Shown here piece by piece: positions 51,881 through 63,622 of a DNA stretch of 63,742 bases; position 1 is the stretch's first letter; every line of letters begins with the position of its first letter. Position numbers and translations under genes: made by a program. Location: assembly GCA_034189385.1 (NCBI GenBank), contig JAXHVD010000024.1, forward strand, positions 1 to 63,742. The letters are read 5' to 3'. Below the pieces are notes generated by a model, which was not told the origin of the DNA, made no database searches, and worked only from the letters and a program-made list of their open reading frames with translations. Source of the stretch: Thermodesulfobacteriota bacterium (GTDB taxonomy: Bacteria; Desulfobacterota; Desulfobacteria; Desulfobacterales; C00003060).

Positions 51881-52773
51881 CTATCCAAAGAGGCTGCGCC
51901 GGTCCAGGCTGCGATATTGAATGGCTTCTGACACATGATTGACGCCGATGTCCGGGGCTTGGTCAAGGTCGGCAATGGTCCTTGCGATTTTTAGTATCCG
52001 ATTGAAGGCACGGGCCGAGAGCCCGAGCTTGTCAATAGCAGCCTCAAGGAGCCTGTGGCCATCAGGGCCTACGGGACAGTATTTTTTGATCTGGCGGTTG
52101 TTCATCTGGGCGTTGCAGTGAATCTTGGTCCGCTTCAACCTGTGGGACTGGGCGGTCCGCGCCCCATGCACGCGCTCTCTTATGGCGGCAGAGGTCTCGG
52201 CCTTGTCCATGCTCGCCAGGTCTTTGTAGCGCACGGCCGGCACTTCCACATGAATATCCATGCGGTCCAGAAGAGGGCCTGAGACCTTGGAGCGATAACG
52301 ATGAATCCTGGTATGAGTGCAGGTGCATTCATGTTTGGGATCGGAAAAATAGCCACAAGGGCACGGATTCATGGCAGCCACCAGCATGAACCTGGCCGGG
52401 TACGTGATACTGGTCACGGCCCTGGCAATAGTGACGCAGCCGTCTTCCATGGGCTGACGGAGGACCTCTAAGACGTGCTTCTTGAACTCCGGCAATTCAT
52501 CCAAAAAGAGCACCCCGTTGTGGGCAAGACTCACCTCGCCCGGCCTTGGGACATGGCCCCCACCGATGAGGCCCGCGTCTGAGATGGTGTGGTGGGGGGC
52601 ACGAAAGGGTCTTCTGGTCACCAGTGCCTTCTCTTTGGTGAGCATCCCAACCACGCTGTAAACTTTGGTGGTTTCAATCGCCTCCTCAAAGGTAATGGGA
52701 GGCAAGATGGTTGCAAGACGCTTGGCGAGCATGGTCTTGCCAGCCCCAGGAGGGCCGATCATGATAACATTAT
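51881..52773 (-). pseudogene. comM: comM/yifB 3' half (interrupted by the integrated element)
   Basis: [77 protein letters not shown]. Confidence 0.95.
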
Positions 52774-52784
52774 ATAATGTTTAA
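52760..52784. other. att junction at the integrase end
   Basis: Core catgataacattat plus element arm ttatataatgtttaa, which overlaps the integrase stop codon. Confidence 0.88.
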
Positions 52785-54562
52785 TCAACCATATATTTTG
52801 TAATTTCAACCATTTTTGGTTTTCCGCTATCATCCACACTAACAGCAAAACTCTTCCCTGTCTCTGCGTCCAAATCAAGTTTCAAGTGTGGCTCACTAAC
52901 TGGGCTTATCACCTGATGGCTCCTGTTCTTGTAAAACACTGAGTACAAACGATAATGCCTATTGTCAATCCTCTTATTCAACTCCCGTTTGAACCTTTCA
53001 AGTTCATTGAAAGAAAGCATCCCTTTCAATTCTTTCATAGCCGTCTTGATAAACCCTTTTGTTATTCTTGGGGTGCCAACAGGATATATGACAACCTTAT
53101 CAAAAATATCCCGCAACCTATCCCTTAGACGGACCCTTACGTCAACACTGTTTTCTTCAGTTATCTTTTCGATTAATTCCTTTGCCGACTTGAGGCGCGT
53201 TTCAATGTCCTCCTGTTTGACAGACAAACTTTGCATCTTCACATCAAGTTCCCGCTTCCTCAATTCCAAAGCCTCTTTTTCATCAAAAATGTGTCTCAAT
53301 TTTTCTTCTAATTGCTGCCGAACCCTTCTGTCTTTCGTGAAGGAAATGGTGTCCGTGATATTAGCAATTCCAGAATTGACATGACTGAGTTCTCCGTCTG
53401 TGGCTTCTATTTGTTCCTGAAGTTGTTCTATCTCAGACTTTCTCTTGTTCCGATCAGGTAGAATATCCTCTGGGTTCAGCCTTTTTGCATTCTCCAAAAT
53501 CAACTTTTCCACTTCAGGATATCGCACCGAGACATTGACACAGCCCAGACCTCTTCTGGCCTTGTCGCAGACGAGATATTGCCCACCCTTGGGTCCGTTT
53601 CCCTTGTTTACAAAGGCCATAGGCCCCCCACAATAGCCACACTTGGCGATATAAGGAAAAAGATTGCTCACCTTCCCGGTTCTTCCTCCGTGAAAATGCT
53701 TCCCATTCACTTCTAACTTCTTCTGGACCCGATAGAAAAGATCATCCGAAACGACCTGGGGGAAATACCCGCCTATCGGTTGTCCAACGGGTTGCCTTTT
53801 TCCTTTGATCATTGTGTGTGGCTGAAACTCGCCGAGAACAGCGCGAGTCCTAAGTATTTTTTCAATGTAAGACTTGCGCCATCCATTCTTCGGCGTCCAA
53901 GAACCCCCTTTCTCATTGAGCCTTCGGGCTATAATCTCCGATGACAGCCCGTTGACCTTCATTTCAAATATCTGCCTAAGAACCTTCGCCCTCTCAGGAA
54001 CAACTTCAAATTCAGTCTTATCATTCGATAGCTTCAACCATGCCGGAGCCCGGCCCGTCAGTTTCTTCTTACCTATATTGGCCCTCTTTTCCTCCCAAGT
54101 GGCCTTGAGGCGTTTGGATTTCAACGCACTTTCCTCATGGGCGCGAGTCATGACCATTAGGGACATCACAAGTTGACCAGGATTTGCATTGATTGCATCT
54201 TTATCGTACTCCATGCCGTCAGCAAGAGTGACAACCCGGACCCCGGCCCGGATAATGGATGAAAACTGATTGAGTGCGTCCATCACTTGTTCTCGGGATA
54301 GGCGGTCCAGGGACTCAACGATCAGAGTGCTACCTTTCGGGATTCTTCCCTTTTCGATCATTTTCAGAAACCGACCCAAGGCACCCTTGGTACGATGGGC
54401 ACCAGTGAACGCAGAAAGCCCATGATCCTGCAATTCCTTGTCCAGAATCAAATTGTGTGCTTTTGCATAATCCTCGGATGCTTGGATTTGCCTGTGAAGA
54501 CTATCTCCCTTCAACTGCTCCGGGTTTGAAAAGCGGACATAACTGAAGCATTTTGGTTGCAT
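52781..54562 (-). CDS. Large serine recombinase (integrase), 593 aa
   Basis: RBS GGAG; SYVRFS..EQ..GDSLHRQ, LIVESLDRLSRE, recombinase domain, zinc ribbon CGYCGG...YLVC...C, coiled coil. Confidence 0.95.
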   Translation of the reverse strand: MQPKCFSYVRFSNPEQLKGDSLHRQIQASEDYAKAHNLILDKELQDHGLSAFTGAHRTKGALGRFLKMIEKGRIPKGSTLIVESLDRLSREQVMDALNQFSSIIRAGVRVVTLADGMEYDKDAINANPGQLVMSLMVMTRAHEESALKSKRLKATWEEKRANIGKKKLTGRAPAWLKLSNDKTEFEVVPERAKVLRQIFEMKVNGLSSEIIARRLNEKGGSWTPKNGWRKSYIEKILRTRAVLGEFQPHTMIKGKRQPVGQPIGGYFPQVVSDDLFYRVQKKLEVNGKHFHGGRTGKVSNLFPYIAKCGYCGGPMAFVNKGNGPKGGQYLVCDKARRGLGCVNVSVRYPEVEKLILENAKRLNPEDILPDRNKRKSEIEQLQEQIEATDGELSHVNSGIANITDTISFTKDRRVRQQLEEKLRHIFDEKEALELRKRELDVKMQSLSVKQEDIETRLKSAKELIEKITEENSVDVRVRLRDRLRDIFDKVVIYPVGTPRITKGFIKTAMKELKGMLSFNELERFKRELNKRIDNRHYRLYSVFYKNRSHQVISPVSEPHLKLDLDAETGKSFAVSVDDSGKPKMVEITKYMVD

Positions 54563-54563
54563 C

Positions 54564-54803
54564 TCAGATGCTCCTTTCCACGATACCCATTTTGAGAAGA
54601 TACTCGCGGGCTCTGCCATAAAAATCCATAACTGCCGGTGTGGTGATTCTGGATTTGTTCTCACGAAGGTATTTCACAAGCTCATGCAGATAGGTCAAAG
54701 GTTTCTGAGGGAAGTCTCGAAGCGACATGGCGAAACCTACTTGTGGGGAGATCCGCTGTGCCTCTTTCAATAAGGGCAACCCTTTGCTTGAATTGCTTGG
54801 CAT
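54564..54803 (-). CDS. Small hypothetical protein coupled to the integrase (RDF/regulator candidate)
   Basis: 79 aa with an RBS-like AGGATAGGA; stop codon lies 1 nt before the integrase ATG. Confidence 0.55.
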   Translation of the reverse strand: MPSNSSKGLPLLKEAQRISPQVGFAMSLRDFPQKPLTYLHELVKYLRENKSRITTPAVMDFYGRAREYLLKMGIVERSI

Positions 54804-55059
54804 CGTCCTATCCTTTGAAAGATATGTTTGTTATCATCCTTTTTCAAAGACATTCTCGTAAATGATAAGTAGAAAGGCGCTTGCGCCTTCATAAAATTTT
54901 CAAAATAGACATCAAGACCGAACGAAGTGAAGGTCCTTGTCTGTTTTGGGAATTTTATATTGAGTTGGAATTGGTTTTGATATCCCACCATATACTAGGT
55001 CTCCTTTTTCTAGTCCTAACATATGTCTGGGGTAAAAAATTGATTGAAGTAACATATTC

Positions 55060-55182
55060 TTTAATAAAACCAATATGATATCAAATATATTTAAAGGCAT
55101 CTCAATATATTTGAAGTTGAATTTTTCCAATGATTACCAGTTTCAAATATATTTCTCAAATATACTCAATATATTTGAGAAT
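55060..55182. repeat. AT-rich iteron-like array (putative origin)
   Basis: About five variants of the palindrome TCAAATATATTTGA, directly downstream of the 259-aa gene. Confidence 0.6.
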
Positions 55183-55186
55183 CCCG

Positions 55187-55966
55187 TCATTTTATCGTCA
55201 TCTCTCTCAACGCTTTTCGGAACTCCTTGTTTTTCTTCAAAAAAGGGTGTTTGACCTTTCTATTGCCCGGCATTTGCGTGTAGTAACCATCGGCGTACAG
55301 CGTTCCTTCTCGCCCCAGGTCCTTGAGCTTTATGATTATACCCGCGTCACAAAACGCCTTCATAACCTTCTTAGGGTAACCTTCGCTGTATTCCAAATTT
55401 TTGTCTAACTCATGCCAAAAATTTGGGTCCGTCACAAACACCGCGAAGTCGTGTTTTTCGCCCGTACCTGTGTATTTCTGCCCACCCATCTTCATATCAA
55501 CCCACTCAACCGTTTGTCTGTAGTCCTCACCCTTCAGAAAACGATTATAATTGTAAAGATAATTGAGAAGATCCACGATAATCGGGCGGGCTTCTAATTT
55601 TTTCCAAATGCGCTTGTCATTACGCATCCATTCTCTTGGATAAATAAACTCCTTGCGGTAGTTCAGTGCTTCCCGAAACTCTGGGTCGGCCAAAAACTCT
55701 TCTGTGATTTTCTTGATATCTTTGACGACGGGGGAGATCTCTTTGAGCTTTACATCTCTTGCAAGCTCTGGATCGTCAGGATTAAGATCGAGGTCGTACT
55801 CATCAATTGCTTTTTGCTTGGCCCTTTTGATTTCCTCTATGTAGAAGGACCAAATCCTTTGCTGACGCTCTTTTCGTTCTTCCTGCGGTGTTAGTTCGCG
55901 GGTTTGTTTTTTTCGTTGTTTGAGTGCTTCTTTTTGTTTGTCTCTATCGGTGAATATGTTTCTCAT
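55187..55966 (-). CDS. Hypothetical protein, possible replication initiator
   Basis: RBS GGAGG; charged N-terminus; C-terminal wHTH-like segment (YSEGYPKKVMKAFCDAGIIIKL); adjacent to the repeat array. Function is inferred. Confidence 0.6.
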   Translation of the reverse strand: MRNIFTDRDKQKEALKQRKKQTRELTPQEERKERQQRIWSFYIEEIKRAKQKAIDEYDLDLNPDDPELARDVKLKEISPVVKDIKKITEEFLADPEFREALNYRKEFIYPREWMRNDKRIWKKLEARPIIVDLLNYLYNYNRFLKGEDYRQTVEWVDMKMGGQKYTGTGEKHDFAVFVTDPNFWHELDKNLEYSEGYPKKVMKAFCDAGIIIKLKDLGREGTLYADGYYTQMPGNRKVKHPFLKKNKEFRKALREMTIK

Positions 55967-56072
55967 TGTGCACCTCCCCAATGGTGCGCCCCATTTTGAA
56001 TTTGGGGAAGGGAAGACCGTGGGGACGGTTTTTCGGGGATATCACCCTATCCCTTCCGAAAGGGTTTCTAGG

Positions 56073-57287
56073 TTAAGGTCTTGCAGCCAACGTGACGAAT
56101 GGGCTCAACGTGTCCCCATTCCTCGGCGTCACCGCTTCGGATAGCGTAGGCTGGCCATCCAATCGTGTAATCAATCTCCACACCGATTCGTCAGTTTGAA
56201 AATGCAGATGAGTTGACTTCTCCAATGCCATTCCCTTCCTGATTCCGATAGCATAATGGCGGAAGCTGTAAAAACCCACATCTGCCGCCGAACTGAGGGC
56301 TGGCACTTTTTCTGAAAAAATCACCGGTCTCCCGAAAATGGAAAATTTACCATTTGACTCGTTCATGACAGGATAGTGACTTCCACTCGTTCCAATCACC
56401 ACTGAGACGGTCATAATTGAGGGAATCGTGGTAGAGTTTACTACCCAAACAGCGTTTTGCCGGTCCAACTGACGGGCAAAAAGTTTAAGGAGATTTTCCA
56501 GGACTACTGAATTTGCCGCCTGCCCGACTTCTTTCGCCACCTCAATTTTGCAAGATGCATTGAAGATGCCAAGAGGCTGGCCCGCGCCCGTGCCGTTGAA
56601 AAACGTGTAGTCAAGACCAAATGAAAGGGCCGAACTCATGGCTACGCCAAGCTGGTCCTTGAATCCCATTCCGTCCTCAAGGATTTCGTTGCTGGATTTG
56701 GCAAATATCCCAGCTTTTCGGGCACTTAAGGTCAGTCGCTCCAATTTTATATTTTGGTTGGTCCCGGTGCTGCCTTCTCCCATCCACTGTAACCACATGT
56801 TGTTTACTTTTGAACTGTGATCATAGTCAAGAACCTTCGGCACTTTTCGGGTCGGAGTCTTCATGGGCCACACGGTAGCTCGTGGTCTCACGATTTCAGA
56901 CTCTAATGCCTTGTCCATGAGCCATTCAGCGAATGTCTCAGGCACCGAGAACCCGCCCAATTCCGCGTCACCTTCAACATGCGTGCTTTTGGTGACCATT
57001 GCTTCCAGACGTTTGTCGGAAAGCCCTGAGTAAATCGTGTTGAAGTAATCGTTGATGTCCTTCCAACCCCCGTCGTCAAAGGCTATCCCGGTTTCCTGCT
57101 CAGGGTAGAACATTCCGCGATATGACTTATCCACCGCAGGCCCCCCGATGGAGACCGCCTTGTTGCCAACGTCCAGGGGATGCTCGATCCTGTCTGAAAG
57201 AATCGGGTTAATTTTGTCGTCATTACCATCTCGTATGCACTTTTGAACCGTTTTTCTAATCAGTTCCATAGCTTCGTTTTTCTTCAT
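56073..57287 (-). CDS. HK97-fold phage major capsid protein
   Basis: GGFSVPETF, WMGEGS, SSNEILED, FFNGTGAGQPLGI, NAVWVVN, IFGRPVIFSEKVP, RLDGQP. Confidence 0.93.
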   Translation of the reverse strand: MKKNEAMELIRKTVQKCIRDGNDDKINPILSDRIEHPLDVGNKAVSIGGPAVDKSYRGMFYPEQETGIAFDDGGWKDINDYFNTIYSGLSDKRLEAMVTKSTHVEGDAELGGFSVPETFAEWLMDKALESEIVRPRATVWPMKTPTRKVPKVLDYDHSSKVNNMWLQWMGEGSTGTNQNIKLERLTLSARKAGIFAKSSNEILEDGMGFKDQLGVAMSSALSFGLDYTFFNGTGAGQPLGIFNASCKIEVAKEVGQAANSVVLENLLKLFARQLDRQNAVWVVNSTTIPSIMTVSVVIGTSGSHYPVMNESNGKFSIFGRPVIFSEKVPALSSAADVGFYSFRHYAIGIRKGMALEKSTHLHFQTDESVWRLITRLDGQPTLSEAVTPRNGDTLSPFVTLAARP

Positions 57288-57424
57288 TTCGTCACCTCAC
57301 AAGTAAAGTATTGTCAATTTGAATTGTGAGGCTGGTTTCCACTTACAAGCTAACCAGCACCTCCTTTCTGTTAAGTTCATAGGTTGTCCTCCAGTCAGTC
57401 TTGACCTGGACCCATTTTAAATTT

Positions 57425-58075
57425 TTAAATTACTTTCCCTTTTGCTAGGTCGAGCTGAATCCGAACCATTTCCGCTATGTCCTCGGGCGTGACTTCTTCG
57501 TCAAACTGTTCTTCCAGTTCTTTCACTCTCGCTTCAAGCCGGGCAATTTTTTGCTCGTCTGTCTCACCGACACCCAAGGCTTTTTGGACCATAGGCGTCT
57601 TGATAAGTCCGGTATCATAAGCGGCCTGAATCACCCGGGCGCTTGCGTTTGCCGGGACAGACACGCATGAGATTTCAAGCAATTCGGCTTTGGTATAAGT
57701 TCGCTTCGGCTCACCCTGCCCCTTGCCGTCACGCCATGCCACGGGCTTGAAGCCGACGGAGAAGGAATTCATGAACCCGTCTTTGTATAACTCCCAAATT
57801 TCTTCGGCCTCGTCGGTTTTGTCGTGGAACTGAGCCTTGAATATCAACCCATCATCATTGGCTTTGCACCACATTACTCGGCCCACGGGCGGCTTGCTGT
57901 AGTCGTGACTCAGCATCAAAACGGGGTTTTTCCGGTAGGCCTCTAACTCCCAGGCTCGGGCCTCGATCAACTCATTATCGCGGTCTATAACAGGTCGGGA
58001 GCCGTAAGCGGTAATGGCCCTTTCCTCCGTTGAAATTTCCTTTCGTTCTGCGCTAGTAAACAGTTTATTTTTCAT
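57425..58075 (-). CDS. HK97-family prohead protease
   Basis: DRDNELI, NPVLMLSHD...PVGR, SFSVGFKP, ELLEISCVSVPAN. Confidence 0.93.
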   Translation of the reverse strand: MKNKLFTSAERKEISTEERAITAYGSRPVIDRDNELIEARAWELEAYRKNPVLMLSHDYSKPPVGRVMWCKANDDGLIFKAQFHDKTDEAEEIWELYKDGFMNSFSVGFKPVAWRDGKGQGEPKRTYTKAELLEISCVSVPANASARVIQAAYDTGLIKTPMVQKALGVGETDEQKIARLEARVKELEEQFDEEVTPEDIAEMVRIQLDLAKGKVI

Positions 58076-58207
58076 TTTCGATTACCTCCAAAAAAATTTG
58101 GGAAGCGACAAAGACAGCAAAATAGGGAAAAAATCTCTGCCGCCTCCCGGGCCGCAATGACAAAAACCCCTGATACCTCGAAGGCATCTCCAAGGTGGGA
58201 GCACTAT

Positions 58208-58549
58208 TTAATCTCGAATTTCAATCTCTCCACTTTCTATTTTCGCCCACAAATCCTTAATTTCCGGCAGATCCATGACATTTTTCATTGTATCGTCCCA
58301 CATCTTCGTCATAACTTCCTTCCGGATATTTTTGGCCAACTGCTCAGCCAGCATGCTGGTCACCCCATCCCAGATCTTCCGGTTGACTACCACAACATCA
58401 CAATTAACTTTTTCATACTTCCTTATTAGCTCGGAAATTGCCAGCCGGATAGCCTCGGAACGGCTTATTTTCAGTTTCTTAGCCACCCCATCAAGACTGT
58501 TGATCATTTTGTCACTAGCCATGAACGTCCGCATTTTTTGAGTTGTCAT
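58208..58549 (-). CDS. Ribbon-helix-helix (CopG-like) regulator
   Basis: TFMASDKMINSLDGVAKKLKISRSEAIRLAISELI. Confidence 0.8.
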   Translation of the reverse strand: MTTQKMRTFMASDKMINSLDGVAKKLKISRSEAIRLAISELIRKYEKVNCDVVVVNRKIWDGVTSMLAEQLAKNIRKEVMTKMWDDTMKNVMDLPEIKDLWAKIESGEIEIRD

Positions 58550-58579
58550 GTAGTTGCCCACCTTTTTTGAGTTTTCCCT

Positions 58580-58608
58580 ATTATATAATCAAATAGATCA
58601 AAAATCAA
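58580..58608 (-). promoter_or_regulatory. Sigma70 promoter for the RHH-protease-capsid genes
   Basis: TTGATT-17 nt-TATAAT; TTGAT repeated three times across the promoter. Confidence 0.7.
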
Positions 58609-58623
58609 GTCTTTTTTATTAGG

Positions 58624-60357
58624 TCAGAGAAAATGGGGTCCAGGATCTGGGAGAAGGGCAAACGGATCGTCCCTGCCTTCCACGTCCTCCCAGCCTTCAT
58701 TTCCCCAGTAGCCCTTGTCTTTCTGGTTATCTTCTTCGTCGTAGATGGGGCGCACCCTTGGGCCAGCTGTCTGCCCAATAGTGACCAGTCCAATGGCCGC
58801 CATTGCTAGAGACACAATCAAATCCACTTTTTTGGAATTTGTCTTCTTAGTGATCTTCCATCCGCGTGCACTTTCCTGGGCTGTGGCGTTCTGAGCGTGC
58901 TTTCGAAACTCTTTGCACTTGTAGACAAGAAGAATCCGGTTGATGATCAAGTCATAGAGATTCTGCCCCATAGCGGTAAGATTCGAAACTGTCTGGTTGT
59001 ATGGTTCCATTCTGATTCCGTCTTTCACAAGACGCTGGGCTGAGGAAACCATTTGATACGGGTCATACAGGCATTTTTTTAGATAGAAATCCCGGTGAAG
59101 TTGGCGGATGTATTCTTCCACGACTTCAAAGTCGATCTTGGTCCGCTTTGGCGCCCATTTTCGATGTCTAACTAGAGCCACACGGTCATTGATGTTGGCA
59201 ACTGCGGTAATGGCCGTTGAGTCCCCAGAGACGGAGGCGTCGACAGCCGCCACAATACTCAATGAACGATTTGGCATGATAACCGGATGATGTTTTGTGT
59301 CTACACATGCGTCCCAGTCGTCCAAGTCAATGAAAGCTGATTCTGAAGACGTCCATTTGTTTTCGTGCAACCTAAGATAAGAATTTGGTCTGAGACGCGT
59401 CCTCTGCGTTTTGAGATATTCCTTTGTGATCCAAGAGGCGAGATTTTTCTCTGACCAAAAGAACCACATCTTGGGGTCTTTCTTCTTTATGCCCCTTTGA
59501 TACACGTCCCACAGGGGGCCGGTTTCTTCAAAGCCTGCATAAGAAGTTATCAGCGTCAGCGGTTCTTTCCGGGCCGGGGATGTAGTCAACTCGTCAATGA
59601 ATTGCTCCTCCACTTCCAAGTCAAGAGCCCACATCTCGTCTATGAGAATCAAAGAGGCGTTAGAACCAGCCACGGTCTTGAGGTTTTTACTCACAACATA
59701 GGCAACCGTGTGGTTCAGTTGATTCTCGATACTCTCTTCCCCTATCTTGCAATGGGAAAATTGTGTGGGGTTAAGCTGAATACTTCGCTTCAAAGCCTGA
59801 AAAGCCCGGAGAGTGGCCTGTTCCCTGGAATTGGCTGCAAAGATAACCTCACCAAAGTCGCCTTCTTGAAACAAAAAGCGGTTGGCTATAGCTGCGCTGA
59901 TAGTGCTCTTGCCATTTTTCTTAGGAGTACTCCACACGCCCAGGTTATAGCGCCTCAAGCCTGTTTTGGGATCTTTGGAGAAAAGTTCTTGAAGGTTCTT
60001 GATCTGCCACTTTTCAAGCTCAATCGGGCCTTTGTTCTCAGGGATGTAGAATTGCTCGCTGATATAAAGGACCGGATCATCTTCATATCTCTCATCATGG
60101 GGATCGAAGTCAGGTGTAGGTGTAGCATTTATTTTCTTCTTCAACCGGTGAGCTTGCCATCTCTTTTCCCTGCCCTTGGCTTGGCCTTCGCGTTGTCTGG
60201 CCTTTGCTTCCTTAGAAAGCACTGGTTTTGGTTTACGTCCGGCCTTTTTTCCGCCTGTATCACCAAAAGAGCCCTTGTTTAACGGACGTTTGTCGGATGC
60301 CCTGTCTCCTGGTATGGGTTTTTCTTTTTCGTTGGTTTTCCGCCGTTTGAACATCAT
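58624..60357 (-). CDS. terL: Terminase large subunit with a basic N-terminal extension (577 aa)
   Basis: RBS GGAGG; Walker A PKKNGKST, AANSREQA, Walker B LILIDE, nuclease AVDAS, YDPYQM, KVDLIVSLAMA. Confidence 0.92.
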   Translation of the reverse strand: MMFKRRKTNEKEKPIPGDRASDKRPLNKGSFGDTGGKKAGRKPKPVLSKEAKARQREGQAKGREKRWQAHRLKKKINATPTPDFDPHDERYEDDPVLYISEQFYIPENKGPIELEKWQIKNLQELFSKDPKTGLRRYNLGVWSTPKKNGKSTISAAIANRFLFQEGDFGEVIFAANSREQATLRAFQALKRSIQLNPTQFSHCKIGEESIENQLNHTVAYVVSKNLKTVAGSNASLILIDEMWALDLEVEEQFIDELTTSPARKEPLTLITSYAGFEETGPLWDVYQRGIKKKDPKMWFFWSEKNLASWITKEYLKTQRTRLRPNSYLRLHENKWTSSESAFIDLDDWDACVDTKHHPVIMPNRSLSIVAAVDASVSGDSTAITAVANINDRVALVRHRKWAPKRTKIDFEVVEEYIRQLHRDFYLKKCLYDPYQMVSSAQRLVKDGIRMEPYNQTVSNLTAMGQNLYDLIINRILLVYKCKEFRKHAQNATAQESARGWKITKKTNSKKVDLIVSLAMAAIGLVTIGQTAGPRVRPIYDEEDNQKDKGYWGNEGWEDVEGRDDPFALLPDPGPHFL

Positions 60358-60479
60358 GTTTAATCCTCCAAATTCTGATGTATGGTTCATCTTCTGATAA
60401 TTCGATGGCAATTTCTTTTTTATTCCTGCGGTCAGAGAACATCTTCGCTTCTCCTTGGGGTGAACCAGCTCCCAGTTTG

Positions 60480-60543
60480 GGAGTGGCCCCCACCCACTCA
60501 AAATCCGGGCCACCCACCTAAACTTTTGACTCCCCCCCCGGGC
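60480..60543 (-). other. Putative cos/packaging region
   Basis: CGGGGGGGGAGTCAAAAGTTT G-run motif upstream of the terminase gene, resembling the cos region of HK97-like phages. Confidence 0.5.
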
Positions 60544-61158
60544 CTATGCCTTCGCCTTTATGTCGATGCCCCGCTTTTTCAACCAATGGTGAAGATTCGC
60601 CGGGGTGGTCTTGTATCGCTTGGCAATGAAGGCTTTCGTGCTTCCATCCTTCAGCAGGGCTTCAATCTCTGGCCTGAACTTGTCCAGCTTGGACTTGCCC
60701 GGTCCCTTGGGCCTGCCGAGCTTGATCCCTGCGGCTTTCTTTGCGGCCAGGGCCTCTCTGGTTCTCAGAGAAATGAAATCCCTCTCAACTTCACTAAAGA
60801 GCGCAAGCAGGGTCGTCATGATCTTGGTTTGAAGGTCATTGCCATTGAGCGAAAGGTTCTCTTTGACAGAGAATATATCAATGCCTTTCTCCTTGGCTGT
60901 CTTGATAATCTCCAAGACCTCAAGAGTGGACCGCCCGGAACGGGTCAACTCTGGGAAGACAAGACGATCCCCTTTGCCCAAATCGTCAATGATCGTTTTC
61001 AGCTTTCTCTCTTTCCAACTCTTCCTTCCGCTGACTTTTTCCTCGACAAAGTCCACATGGCCAAAGTGCTGGGCATGGGCAAACTTCAGAATGTCCGCCC
61101 GGAACTTCTCCACATCCTGATCATCTGTACTGACCCTGAGATACGCGACCGTCGTCAT
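60544..61158 (-). CDS. Small serine resolvase/invertase (204 aa)
   Basis: RBS AGGAG; AYLRVSTDDQ, EEKVSG, ELTRSGRS, EVERDFISLRTREAL, KLGRPKG, C-terminal HTH. Confidence 0.93.
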   Translation of the reverse strand: MTTVAYLRVSTDDQDVEKFRADILKFAHAQHFGHVDFVEEKVSGRKSWKERKLKTIIDDLGKGDRLVFPELTRSGRSTLEVLEIIKTAKEKGIDIFSVKENLSLNGNDLQTKIMTTLLALFSEVERDFISLRTREALAAKKAAGIKLGRPKGPGKSKLDKFRPEIEALLKDGSTKAFIAKRYKTTPANLHHWLKKRGIDIKAKA

Positions 61159-61332
61159 CTGTTGCACTCTCCTTTCTTCTGGACAATTAGACGAAAACCC
61201 CATTTTGGAACTTATTTTATATTGAACAATATAAAAAGTCAAGACCTTTTCATGGTGATAGATATTTACTTTAAATGATCCTTTTTATCAAAGGTATGGC
61301 CGGAAACGTAGGCAGGATATGGCAACAAAGAA

Positions 61333-61428
61333 GGAACCAGGAATTGGCCGGGAGAACCTGTGGAAAGGGTCTTGATTATGGTAGGTTTAGCCCGGTTTTG
61401 GGGCCGGTTTGGGACAAGGAGCGGGGGA
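61333..61428. repeat. Diverged repeat, copy 1 (copy 2 at 62433-62526)
   Basis: gaacc.ggaattg.c.gg(g)agaacct.t.g.aa..gtcttg.tt.t.gt...gttag...gg.tttgggg...acaagg.g..ggggg. Confidence 0.7.
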
Positions 61429-61513
61429 GGGGGAAACAACCGGTTGTATCCGCTCGGACTTGGTGGTATTGATCCGAATTGAAACAGAGACGGGGTGACG
61501 AGGACGTGACTAC

Positions 61514-61542
61514 TTAAACACTATATAACATGATGACATTAT
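61514..61542. other. att junction at the resolvase end
   Basis: Arm ttaaacactatataa plus core catgatgacattat. Confidence 0.88.
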
Positions 61543-62185
61543 GACCTCCGGCTGCTGCCACCTCTAGGGCCCGCTTTACGTGTTCTTGTCCTTTCACCTC
61601 GGAAAAATCTATGTCATCAGAAGGCCTATGCTCAAAAATGGCCTGTAAGTCCATCGACTTCGGTCTAATGGCCTTACGGCCGCCCAAGAACTCCACGAGC
61701 TCCCCAAGGGTCGAGACAGGTATCACGCCTATGCCGGTTACGACTGCCGCCTCAGGGGCGTTTCTTTGCGGAAGGATGGTCCCTCGGAGACCGGAATCTC
61801 GCGCTGCCAGGGCAACTGGTAAGGAGCCGCGGACCGGCTTTATCCGCCCACCCAGCGAGAGCTCGCCCAGGATCAGATACTCTGCAAGCCTATCCTGGGG
61901 CACTACACCGGTGGCCGCCAGGATGCCAACAGCAATGGGAAGGTCAAAGGCCGTGCCTTCTTTCTTGATGTCTGCCGGTGCCAGGTTGACGGTGATCCGA
62001 TCTTCCGGGAATCTGTATCCAGCGTTGTTGATGGCCGATTTGACGCGGTCCTTGCTTTCCTTTACGGCGGCCTCTGGAAGGCCCACGGTTTGAAAGGTGG
62101 GCAATCCCTGCCGGATGTCCACTTCCACATCGACAATGTAGGCGTCAACGCCCAAAACAGCGCTGCTTAAAACCTTGGCAAGCAA
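61514..62185 (-). pseudogene. comM: comM/yifB 5' half
   Basis: TTG start after GGAGG; VGLPEAAVKESKDRV, ITVNLAPADIKKEG..FDLPIA, GELSL, DFSEVKGQEHVKRALEVAAAGGHNVIM, then element-derived LYSV*. Confidence 0.95.
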
Positions 62186-62542
62186 GACCCCTCCGTAGTT
62201 TGAGTGCCCAAGCAGAGGTGTTAGAACGGCTGTAACCTGCTCAAAGCATGGGCATTTGTTGGGCCTGTTTCCATCATGACCTGTGGCGGGCAAGTTCATT
62301 AGCCTCGATCACGATGGCTAAAAACAATTCGTAAGGCCCCAAATTTACAGCATTTAACAGAGACGTGCTGGAATAGCAATGTTTTTTTTGAGATATGCCC
62401 AGAAACGCGGGCAGGGGAGGGGATTAGGCAGCGAACCGGGAATTGACTGGAGAACCTATTGGGAACGTCTTGGTTCTAGTGAGGTTAGTGTGGGTTTGGG
62501 GTTGGGAGGGAACAAGGGGAAGGGGGCAAGCCCTCTAGGGAC

Positions 62543-63622
62543 CTAAAACGGAATGTCATCGTCGGTGCCCAGGTTGGTATAACGAGATATTGCATCGAAC
62601 CTTGAATGAAGATTGGCGAAGATTATTCGCTTCTTTTCCTGTGTCATGGATTGCAGCAATCTCAGGAAGTTCTTTACAGCAGAAACTGGAAAGCGGAGTT
62701 TCATATAATAGTAATTGCCGCTTATGAAACAACGTATGATACTCGCACAGTCTGGTGCGTGCTCCTCCAACATAAAACTGCGATACACATTCTCAAGCTG
62801 GGTCTGAATCCGCTCAAAATCATCATAGTACTTGACGCCGTGCTCCATTTTGGAGATATGGTGCGCCATACAATCTGCAAAATTGCGATATGATTCCACT
62901 TCCTCCTCACCAAAATCAATTTCGAAGAATCTGTCGCTTTGGATTTCCTTTTCGATGTCGAAGAAGCTTTGCACTCTTGAGTCATGGTTCCGATTGCACA
63001 TGCGGGTTAGAGCCGCTCTATACTTAAAGTGTTCTATTTCCATTTCCTGGATTATCTTTTCGAACAGCTTCCCAACGAAATAGACTTCAGTTCTGAAATC
63101 GTATATAGATTTGTCAAACTCTTCCGGTGGCTCACACCACCAGTTCAAACTAATGCTCTTACCAAAATCCTCAGAATTTTGAATCCGTTTGCCAAATCCA
63201 AGATCAATGATTTTAAGAGTACCGTCGTCACCCACCATAAGATTGTGCGGCCGGACATCTCTATGAAGAATTCTGTGTGCTTCAAGATATCGAAATCCGC
63301 TGATTGCCTGGAGAAAGATTTCGTTGGTCTTCTCTGGGTATTGTTTGAGATACTCTTCTATGTCAGAGCCTTCTATGAACTCCATCAGGATATATCCGGT
63401 AAACTGAGCTGGGTAGAGATAGTAATTGAAGACCCTGACTACGTTACGGTGATGAAGTTGATGAAGAAGTTTGATTTCCCGAACAAAGTTGGCAAACAAG
63501 TCTTGTCTTTGATCTTCAGAGAACGGGCAGTATTTCTTGCAGACGAAGTACTCATTAATCATGTCGTCATGAAGAAGAACCGTCTTTCCGCAAGCTCCCT
63601 GACCAAGCTCTTTAATCCATTT
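62543..63622 (-). pseudogene. Ser/Thr protein kinase, 5'-truncated by ISL3; ends in DDDIPF
   Basis: Frame extends upstream of ATG 63562 to KWIKELGQGACGKTVL (Gly loop), right up to the IS end. ILMEFIEG, ILHRDVRPHN, IIDLGFGK. Confidence 0.8.

Follow-up and report, generated by a model that had tools for sequence, protein, structure and literature searches.

We analysed a 63,742-nucleotide stretch of DNA from a Thermodesulfobacteriota bacterium (contig JAXHVD010000024.1 of assembly GCA_034189385.1; hereafter the window, with G000 denoting its genome) that carries a mobile element inserted in the host gene comM. This element encodes an HK97-fold capsid protein, a prohead protease and its own terminase large subunit (TerL), has no detectable portal gene and, by sequence comparison, belongs with other small elements without a portal that form a recurring family. 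We favour, with reasonable though limited confidence, the reading that it is a helper-dependent satellite that would build small heads on the portal of a helper phage and fill them with its own TerL, in a family defined by the absence of a portal alongside a self-encoded TerL. Members of this family would probably borrow the portal and the tail from the helper phage.

The element is real, and both of its attachment (att) sites and all of its open reading frames (ORFs) are intact. As the sequence-only reading of this stretch had described, an insert of 8,769 bp lies between two 14-bp att cores, CATGATAACATTAT at 52760 and CATGATGACATTAT at 61529; the left att site (52760..52786) consists of the core at 52760-52773 and an element-side arm, and the right att site (61514..61542) of an element-side arm and the core at 61529-61542. 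The GC content of the insert is 46%, versus 52% for the genome. Removing the insert in silico produced a single open comM/YifB frame, in which the 3' part of this interrupted gene for a Mg-chelatase-like ATPase (51881..52765, minus strand; PF01078/PF13335) is in frame with its 5' part (61535..62190, minus strand, start approximate; PF13541). The corresponding empty site (52759 joined to 61529) was present in contigs of 4/4 sequencing runs; some of these contigs differ from the window and may stem from related organisms. In the deepest run (X1) a single contig of 8,895 bp spans the whole element, and the run containing the window sequence is a marine metagenome. Rebuilding attP from the ends gave a core flanked by an imperfect inverted repeat, the usual arrangement for serine integrases.

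Annotation of ten ORFs with Pfam and PHROG placed all element genes on the minus strand and reproduced the gene order read earlier from the letters; the label of one motif as cos-like was unsupported (see below). The earlier statement that all ORFs are intact and have good ribosome binding sites stood with respect to intactness, but the site of the ribbon-helix-helix (RHH) gene is weak, and for four genes the likely starts with good sites are later than those of the longest ORFs (integrase, 54562; orphan gene, 55966; TerL, 60357; resolvase, 61158). TerL (577 amino acids; 58624..60357, minus strand; PF03354+PF20441, phrog_9) has a family-specific basic N-terminal helix and keeps the Walker A/B motifs and nuclease Asp residues, and its predicted structure (pLDDT 79) best matched the HK97 TerL (6z6d, E=6e-25). 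It retains 50/54 of the columns that are at least 90% conserved, compared with 74/240 of the variable columns. The HK97-fold major capsid protein (404 amino acids; 56073..57287, minus strand; PF05065, phrog_10) likewise keeps 60/70 such conserved columns versus 31/138 variable ones; a scan of viral contigs with this capsid as a single-protein query gave no match. The HK97-type prohead protease of the S78 type (216 amino acids; 57425..58075, minus strand; PF04586, phrog_80) contains what we take to be the His and Ser motifs of this enzyme.

Searches with PF04860, PF05133 and eight home-made profiles detected no portal, either in the element or in G000, which is 90% complete. The eight profiles were built from the portals of loci in this analysis and cover Mu-type and P22-type portals. 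The claim that no gap could accommodate a portal was borne out, the largest gap within the element being 355 bp, and the only ORFs without an assignment are two of 73-78 amino acids and the Rep-like gene. The annotation of the ten ORFs also gave no hit to a head-tail connector or adaptor, or to an HNH nuclease.

The relatives of the element showed the same absence. A metagenome scan with TerL, of which the best 80 of 379 loci were used, and viral contigs, which added 38 and 68 partly overlapping loci, provided a close set of 91 loci (TerL 37-54% identical), including two exact duplicates and many fragments. Among them, 17 distinct contigs with direct terminal repeats represented 16 circles of 7.4-14.4 kb, L118 and L220 being counted as one circle given their equal unit length and gene order. 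With L219 and L227 (near-terminal repeats) and L183 and L200 (8.4-kb units read more than once), these gave 20 complete units. A portal was detected in 1/91 close loci (L203) and in 0/20 complete units, using PHROG annotation of 182 proteins, mostly cluster representatives and singletons, together with a six-frame profile search; close relatives thus do not routinely carry a portal, which would have marked the element as a deletion remnant. More distant TerLs (22-36% identical) were found mostly in ordinary phages with portal genes. That the profiles hit a portal in 78/88 of these distant loci is circular as a control, these loci being the source of the profiles, and their commonest portal gene was named by position, size and one weak Pfam hit only. 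We tried a 621-amino-acid unannotated protein of L200/L176 as a hidden portal and rejected it, since it resembles DUF3631/primase-helicase proteins instead.

Gene content downstream of TerL was also shared within the family. In 46 non-identical close loci the sequence continued for at least 2.5 kb downstream of TerL. A capsid gene was present in that part of 31 of them, almost invariably preceded by a small gene that in most cases encodes an RHH or a MerR-like helix-turn-helix (HTH_17) protein, both predicted to bind DNA. The gene order with an RHH homologue was the same in L056, L157, L119 and L145. A capsid gene was present in 14/20 complete units, and no recognisable capsid gene in the other six.

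Both TerL and the capsid of the relatives are under purifying selection, as judged from dN/dS ratios with a median of 0.12 and a maximum of 0.23 for TerL (28/33 disjoint pairs estimable) and a median of 0.13 and a maximum of 0.21 for the capsid (7/7 pairs); the relaxed selection on these genes that would have told against the sequence-only reading was not seen in the family. According to the accessible part of PMC13669383, a portal is essential for the packaging of double-stranded DNA in known HK97-fold viruses. Because an intact TerL and a selected capsid are kept without a portal, and TerL needs a portal in these viruses, the portal would have to come in trans. A portal-independent particle, in which TerL fills a tailless HK97 shell through some other opening or a non-homologous channel protein, is very improbable in our estimation. 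It would fit the absence of portals from all complete units, and portal-free packaging is raised for other mini genomes in the accessible part of PMC13669383, but the predicted fold of TerL is that of normal portal-docking motors, no conserved unannotated gene is common to all units, and no entry route is apparent.

In a 150-row FastTree phylogeny, the window TerL fell within a 57-row group lacking any portal-bearing row (support 97), and the matching 22-row group in a 61-row IQ-TREE phylogeny had an SH-aLRT value of 91; the pairing of the window TerL with that of L116 may be an artefact. L203, the portal-bearing fragment, belongs to a second group of close loci, in which eight members without a portal (e.g. 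L205, L227, L206) have TerLs 65-80% identical to its own; therefore, the portal was lost, or TerL exchanged with phages, more than once. This likeness is what would be expected if satellite motors stay compatible with phage portals. A scan of viral sequences with the L203 TerL returned only four more distant phage contigs, at 40% identity, and identified no helper.

Several points weigh against a helper-dependent satellite with heads of its own. The likeness of L203 also fits repeated derivation from phages by gene loss, and the relatives may hold a portal too divergent for our profiles, although the window element has no ORF left for one. Only the best 80 of the 379 metagenome matches entered the survey, and many loci are fragments. 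Head building appears to be optional in the family, because 6/20 complete units are without a recognisable capsid gene. The branch leading to the window TerL is long (0.6-0.7), and the dN/dS values come from relatives, the window genes having no kin close enough (best 51%). The depth of the element in run X1 equals that of its flanks, as for a single copy; no attP joint was among the joints listed for that run; and no particle, helper, expression or excised circle has been seen for the window element.

This single-copy state without a sign of excision in the one deep run is what would be expected of a decayed prophage, or of a decayed phage-inducible chromosomal island of the capsid-forming type (cf-PICI), that had become immobile after deletion of its portal and tail. 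The rarity of the element (TerL matches at E≤1e-30 in 0/400 other genomes of the class and 4/400 of the phylum) and the portal-bearing L203 near the family point the same way. We nevertheless regard decay as improbable, given that the att sites and ORFs are all intact, that gene order and purifying selection are maintained in a family with 20 complete portal-less units across 37-54% identity, and that TerL is not of the cf-PICI-like type.

The origin of the capsid bears on this last point. Its family is large (1,016 proteins at E≤1e-20), and the loci found with it, in records titled Desulfobacterota/Syntrophales, Clostridia, Acidobacteria and others, were of three types: cf-PICI-like loci with an integrase, primase, HNH, TerL, protease-capsid fusion and portal; PICI-like loci with a capsid and no TerL; and, alone in the third type, L056 (Syntrophorhabdus), with TerL, RHH, capsid, Rep, a short tyrosine recombinase, a serine integrase and no portal. 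Identity of the window TerL is 43% to that of L056 and 21% to the cf-PICI-like TerL, and the window capsid is closest to that of a capsid-only PICI-like island, L030 (51%), and lies outside the 30-row cf-PICI-like clade in the capsid tree. Because of this low TerL identity and the position of the capsid, the element is not a portal deletion of the cf-PICI-like elements that we found.

Genomes of the same order do contain cf-PICI-like elements that have a portal and a capsid of the same family (about 40% identity), and a co-resident element of this kind could be imagined to supply the portal and neck, with the tail coming from a phage. We give such a satellite of a satellite a low probability: a portal interface shared with a cf-PICI-like partner is unlikely because the two TerLs are so distant, no such element was found in the 90%-complete G000, and most capsids of the family fall outside the cf-PICI-like clade.

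Rather more weight, although it remains unlikely, is due to a satellite that acts mainly by interference, with its capsid protein joining the helper capsid as a co-assembling subunit that redirects size or poisons assembly, its TerL only redirecting or blocking helper packaging, and the element travelling in helper-made or mixed heads. Size redirection by a capsid homologue (Ccm) is known in cos-type Staphylococcus aureus pathogenicity islands (SaPIs), the closest capsid relatives are in capsid-only PICI-like islands such as L030, and the capsid gene is missing from six complete units and is swapped between two families, phrog_10 and phrog_29. However, the element has retained a maturation protease of its own, like L119 and L145; L234 and L235 retain a scaffold alongside the capsid; and the catalytic residues of TerL are conserved, which a pure poison would not need.

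If the element is indeed a satellite that builds heads on a borrowed portal, its cycle, which we infer from gene content, would begin with excision upon infection by the helper. Replication would proceed from the Rep-like gene and iterons, with multimers being split by the resolvase, and the satellite capsid protein and protease would then build a small head around the helper portal ring. Satellite TerL, guided by the RHH protein or by its own N-terminal helix instead of a classical terminase small subunit (TerS), would dock on the helper portal and package the element, and the helper would provide neck, tail and lysis. By the capacities quoted in the accessible part of PMC13669383, a shell of T=4 size would fit 8.8 kb.

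The statement that the element has no TerS was upheld only in part. No classical TerS was found among its ORFs, including by Pfam and PHROG, and the PF03592 (TerS) match in G000 is on another contig. However, most capsid-bearing members have a small DNA-binding gene directly after TerL, and such a protein, or the N-terminal helix of TerL, may replace TerS. In the window this slot holds a gene for an RHH protein (113 amino acids; 58208..58549, minus strand; PF01402) with a helical C-terminal half, a candidate regulator or TerS substitute, with homologues in the same slot in L056, L157, L119, L145, L222 and L227. Two HTH-type small proteins of relatives gave weak PHROG hits to TerS. Close relatives conserve the basic helix near the N terminus of TerL (residues 49-78), and 7/81 distant TerLs match only the last third of its profile. 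A complex prediction for TerL residues 30-310 with the RHH protein scored 0.00, bearing neither way. A common C-terminal domain of the RHH-type and HTH-type proteins was considered and found unsupported, there being no profile similarity between them.

The motif proposed to be cos-like is a G-run at approximately 60523..60543 (minus strand), and its function is unsupported. It was absent upstream of related TerLs (0/67) and occurs 20 times in G000. It was also absent upstream of the TerLs from capsid-found loci, mostly of the HNH/cf-PICI-like type (0/30), and the search pattern that missed all 30 of these may have been too strict.

Comparison of sequences shows that the element was inserted site-specifically in comM by its serine integrase, and that excision can restore comM. 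The large serine integrase (593 amino acids; 52781..54562, minus strand; PF00239+PF07508+PF13408, phrog_95) has its stop codon within the att arm. Its relatives at 38-40% identity adjoin one half of comM in two further genomes (L297 and L299); for L296 and L298, no comM was present within the 20 kb fetched. Insertion splits comM, a gene linked to natural transformation. A search for portal-less elements combining a large serine recombinase, capsid, protease and TerL, especially in comM, had been suggested. Portal-less relatives were indeed found, as the 20 complete units attest, but the serine integrase and comM site are not traits of the family, most relatives carrying a tyrosine recombinase instead. 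Of the 16 circles, 13 encode a short tyrosine recombinase (191-225 amino acids), one a full-length integrase and two neither, whereas L056 and L157 carry the short tyrosine recombinase plus a serine integrase. The window element has, in addition to its integrase, a small serine resolvase (204 amino acids; 60544..61158, minus strand; PF00239, phrog_125), probably a multimer resolvase. We infer that this protein and the short tyrosine recombinases of the relatives are interchangeable multimer resolvases, with the integrase being optional.

The replication module proposed earlier, a rep-like gene with AT-rich iterons, also found support. The orphan gene (55187..55966, minus strand) encodes a 259-amino-acid Rep-like protein with a probable C-terminal winged helix, as suggested by homologues and a low-confidence model; it is not portal-like. 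Three homologues were found in the database, and distant ones, aligned by eye, lie 3' of the capsid gene in L145, L157 and L167. The model (pLDDT 54) had no significant PDB match, and matches to winged-helix/RepA_N were only sub-threshold. A feature hit from the Atlas to a translation repressor (0.87) was under the bar and was discarded. The adjacent putative origin (55081..55178, no strand assigned) contains four 11-bp AT-rich iterons (TCAAATATATT) in two inverted pairs, which represent 4/6 copies in the genome. In L157 and L145 the homologous Rep-like gene is likewise followed by inverted repeats, these having an ATATA core, and in other family members the Rep slot is occupied by a primase-helicase or an O-like initiator. 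Because of the iterons next to this gene, the repeats after its homologues and the initiator-type genes in the same slot elsewhere, the two are likely to be an initiator-origin pair. Between the origin and the integrase are a 78-amino-acid ORF with a ribosome binding site (54567..54803, minus strand), directly upstream of the integrase and by position only a candidate directionality factor, and a doubtful 73-amino-acid ORF with a ribosome binding site (54770..54991, minus strand), which overlaps a 21-bp inverted repeat at 54891-54958; neither had a Pfam or PHROG hit.

The element did not fit the defining features of cf-PICIs, PICIs, VEIMEs, tycheposons, EPIPs or terminase-less HK97 mini genomes. 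A full-text literature search, with most subscription papers beyond its reach, returned no description of capsid- and TerL-encoding satellites without a portal, and this architecture is apparently undescribed. With cf-PICIs, as presented in the accessible text of 10.1101/2022.09.08.507074 and PMC10085698, the element shares small size, an HK97 capsid and maturation protease (PF05065 and PF04586), a large terminase, a replication gene, a recombinase and the lack of a tail. It differs from them in having no portal, head-tail connectors, HNH or recognisable TerS, in its TerL subfamily, and in its length of 8.8 kb versus a cf-PICI median of 14 kb, in agreement with the earlier view that it represents a different class. 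The cf-PICI rule of SatelliteFinder requires at least 9/11 core genes, and by gene list the element has at most about six components. The cf-PISPs (10.1101/2025.10.10.681744), in the part accessible, resemble most of the circles reported here in having a separate tyrosine recombinase and no integrase; unlike the window element, they encode a portal.

Classical PICIs/SaPIs and PICI-like tycheposons, as far as the accessible text of PMC10085698 and 10.1101/2020.12.28.424599 describes them, share with the element dependence on a helper portal (here inferred), a possible capsid gene and a similar size, but carry TerS or a capsid and use the helper TerL, whereas the element encodes an intact TerL of its own together with a serine integrase, and lacks primase and AlpA. 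Like classical PICIs it has an integrase (of the serine type), a regulator and a putative replication module between att sites, and no tail or lysis genes. Nearest in spirit are the portal-less HK97 mini genomes of PMC13669383, which, in the part accessible, are of about 8.75 kb, carry genes for capsid, replication and lysogeny but neither portal nor tail, and have a proposed satellite lifestyle; they differ in having encapsulin-like capsids, where the window capsid matches PF05065 only, and no terminase, and in coming from gut samples. The survey of 4,730 small genomes in that paper could contain undescribed family members; six family locus identifiers were not in four of its supplement files, which may use other identifiers.

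Among other satellites, all compared from partly accessible sources, the Streptomyces satellites MulchRoom and MiniFlayer (PMC10690885) also have their own capsid and TerL but encode a portal, TerS, scaffold and head-tail adaptor, and have no replicases. EPIPs (PMC12822802) are likewise small and helper-dependent with a serine integrase, and their tape measure also occurs in a few of the relatives, but they are listed with TerS and head-tail proteins and no TerL. VEIMEs (PMC9618062), which are characterised by concatemeric packaging, are small and helper-dependent but have no capsid gene, and their TerL is expected from the helper; SUSP1 satellites have no TerL listed. In another virus lineage, haloarchaeal SRCEs, which have a capsid and/or a packaging ATPase, offer an analogue.

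We propose to place the element between classical PICIs, which use the portal and TerL of the helper, and cf-PICIs, which have their own. On the whole we incline, if only slightly, to the view that the family is an undescribed class of satellites with chimeric heads, in which TerL would be the fixed core, the DNA-recognition partner (RHH, MerR-like HTH or TerL helix) would be swapped, capsid, scaffold, protease and tape-measure modules would be optional, and the portal would be that of the helper. Such a class would supply the intermediate that is missing between PICIs and cf-PICIs. Since the portal both nucleates the head and docks the motor, it is normally inherited along with capsid and TerL; selection on capsid and TerL without a portal implies that a foreign portal can serve both interfaces. 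This would define a new hijacking point and offer a direct test of how strictly portal-capsid and portal-TerL pairs must match. Such elements would escape satellite models and be filed as tiny phages or prophage debris, and they may account for many 7-10 kb "complete viral genomes".

The survey also yielded several minor observations. Small elements with a tape-measure gene and no portal detected were seen in L115/L164, L155, L158, L070 and L236; L155 also has a neck-like gene, and L236 encodes a scaffold, a capsid, a long tape measure and a 987-amino-acid protein. Two capsid-less sub-groups (L183, L187, L190, L193, L199 and L233; L204, L213 and L219) share small genes after TerL that are conserved but unannotated and might encode scaffold or size-determining proteins. 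L116 is a 13.2-kb circle of two diverged units (about 86% identical), both of which have TerL, a Mu-like protease and a Rep-like gene but no capsid, and in the family member L167 (11612-16791) TerL and the RHH gene are separated by an inserted helicase/methyltransferase block, probably restriction-modification, on the opposite strand. L111, L112, L113 and L143 have more distant TerLs (28-36%) and no portal or capsid hit, L143 being a 9.8-kb circle with ParA. The cf-PICI-like loci in Desulfobacterota/Syntrophales records (L017, L018, L039, L042, L046, L054 and L079-L102) carry HNH, TerL, a protease-capsid fusion and a portal, with a separate TerS or connector unseen in most. L035-L038, L048 and L071-L073, in Acetivibrio and related records, are tandem capsid-only PICI-like units with a primase, a capsid and an IS110-type gene.

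In G000 itself, a second mobile-element fragment, PICI-like, occupies C37:1-8638 and comprises a primase-helicase end, TerS (PF03592), an excisionase-like HTH protein and cargo. Run X3, from a second study, contained short diverged pieces matching the element interior (e.g. 54061-54382), hinting at a related element. In the window, a Ser/Thr protein kinase gene of low GC content (62543-63562) lies just upstream of comM, outside the att sites.

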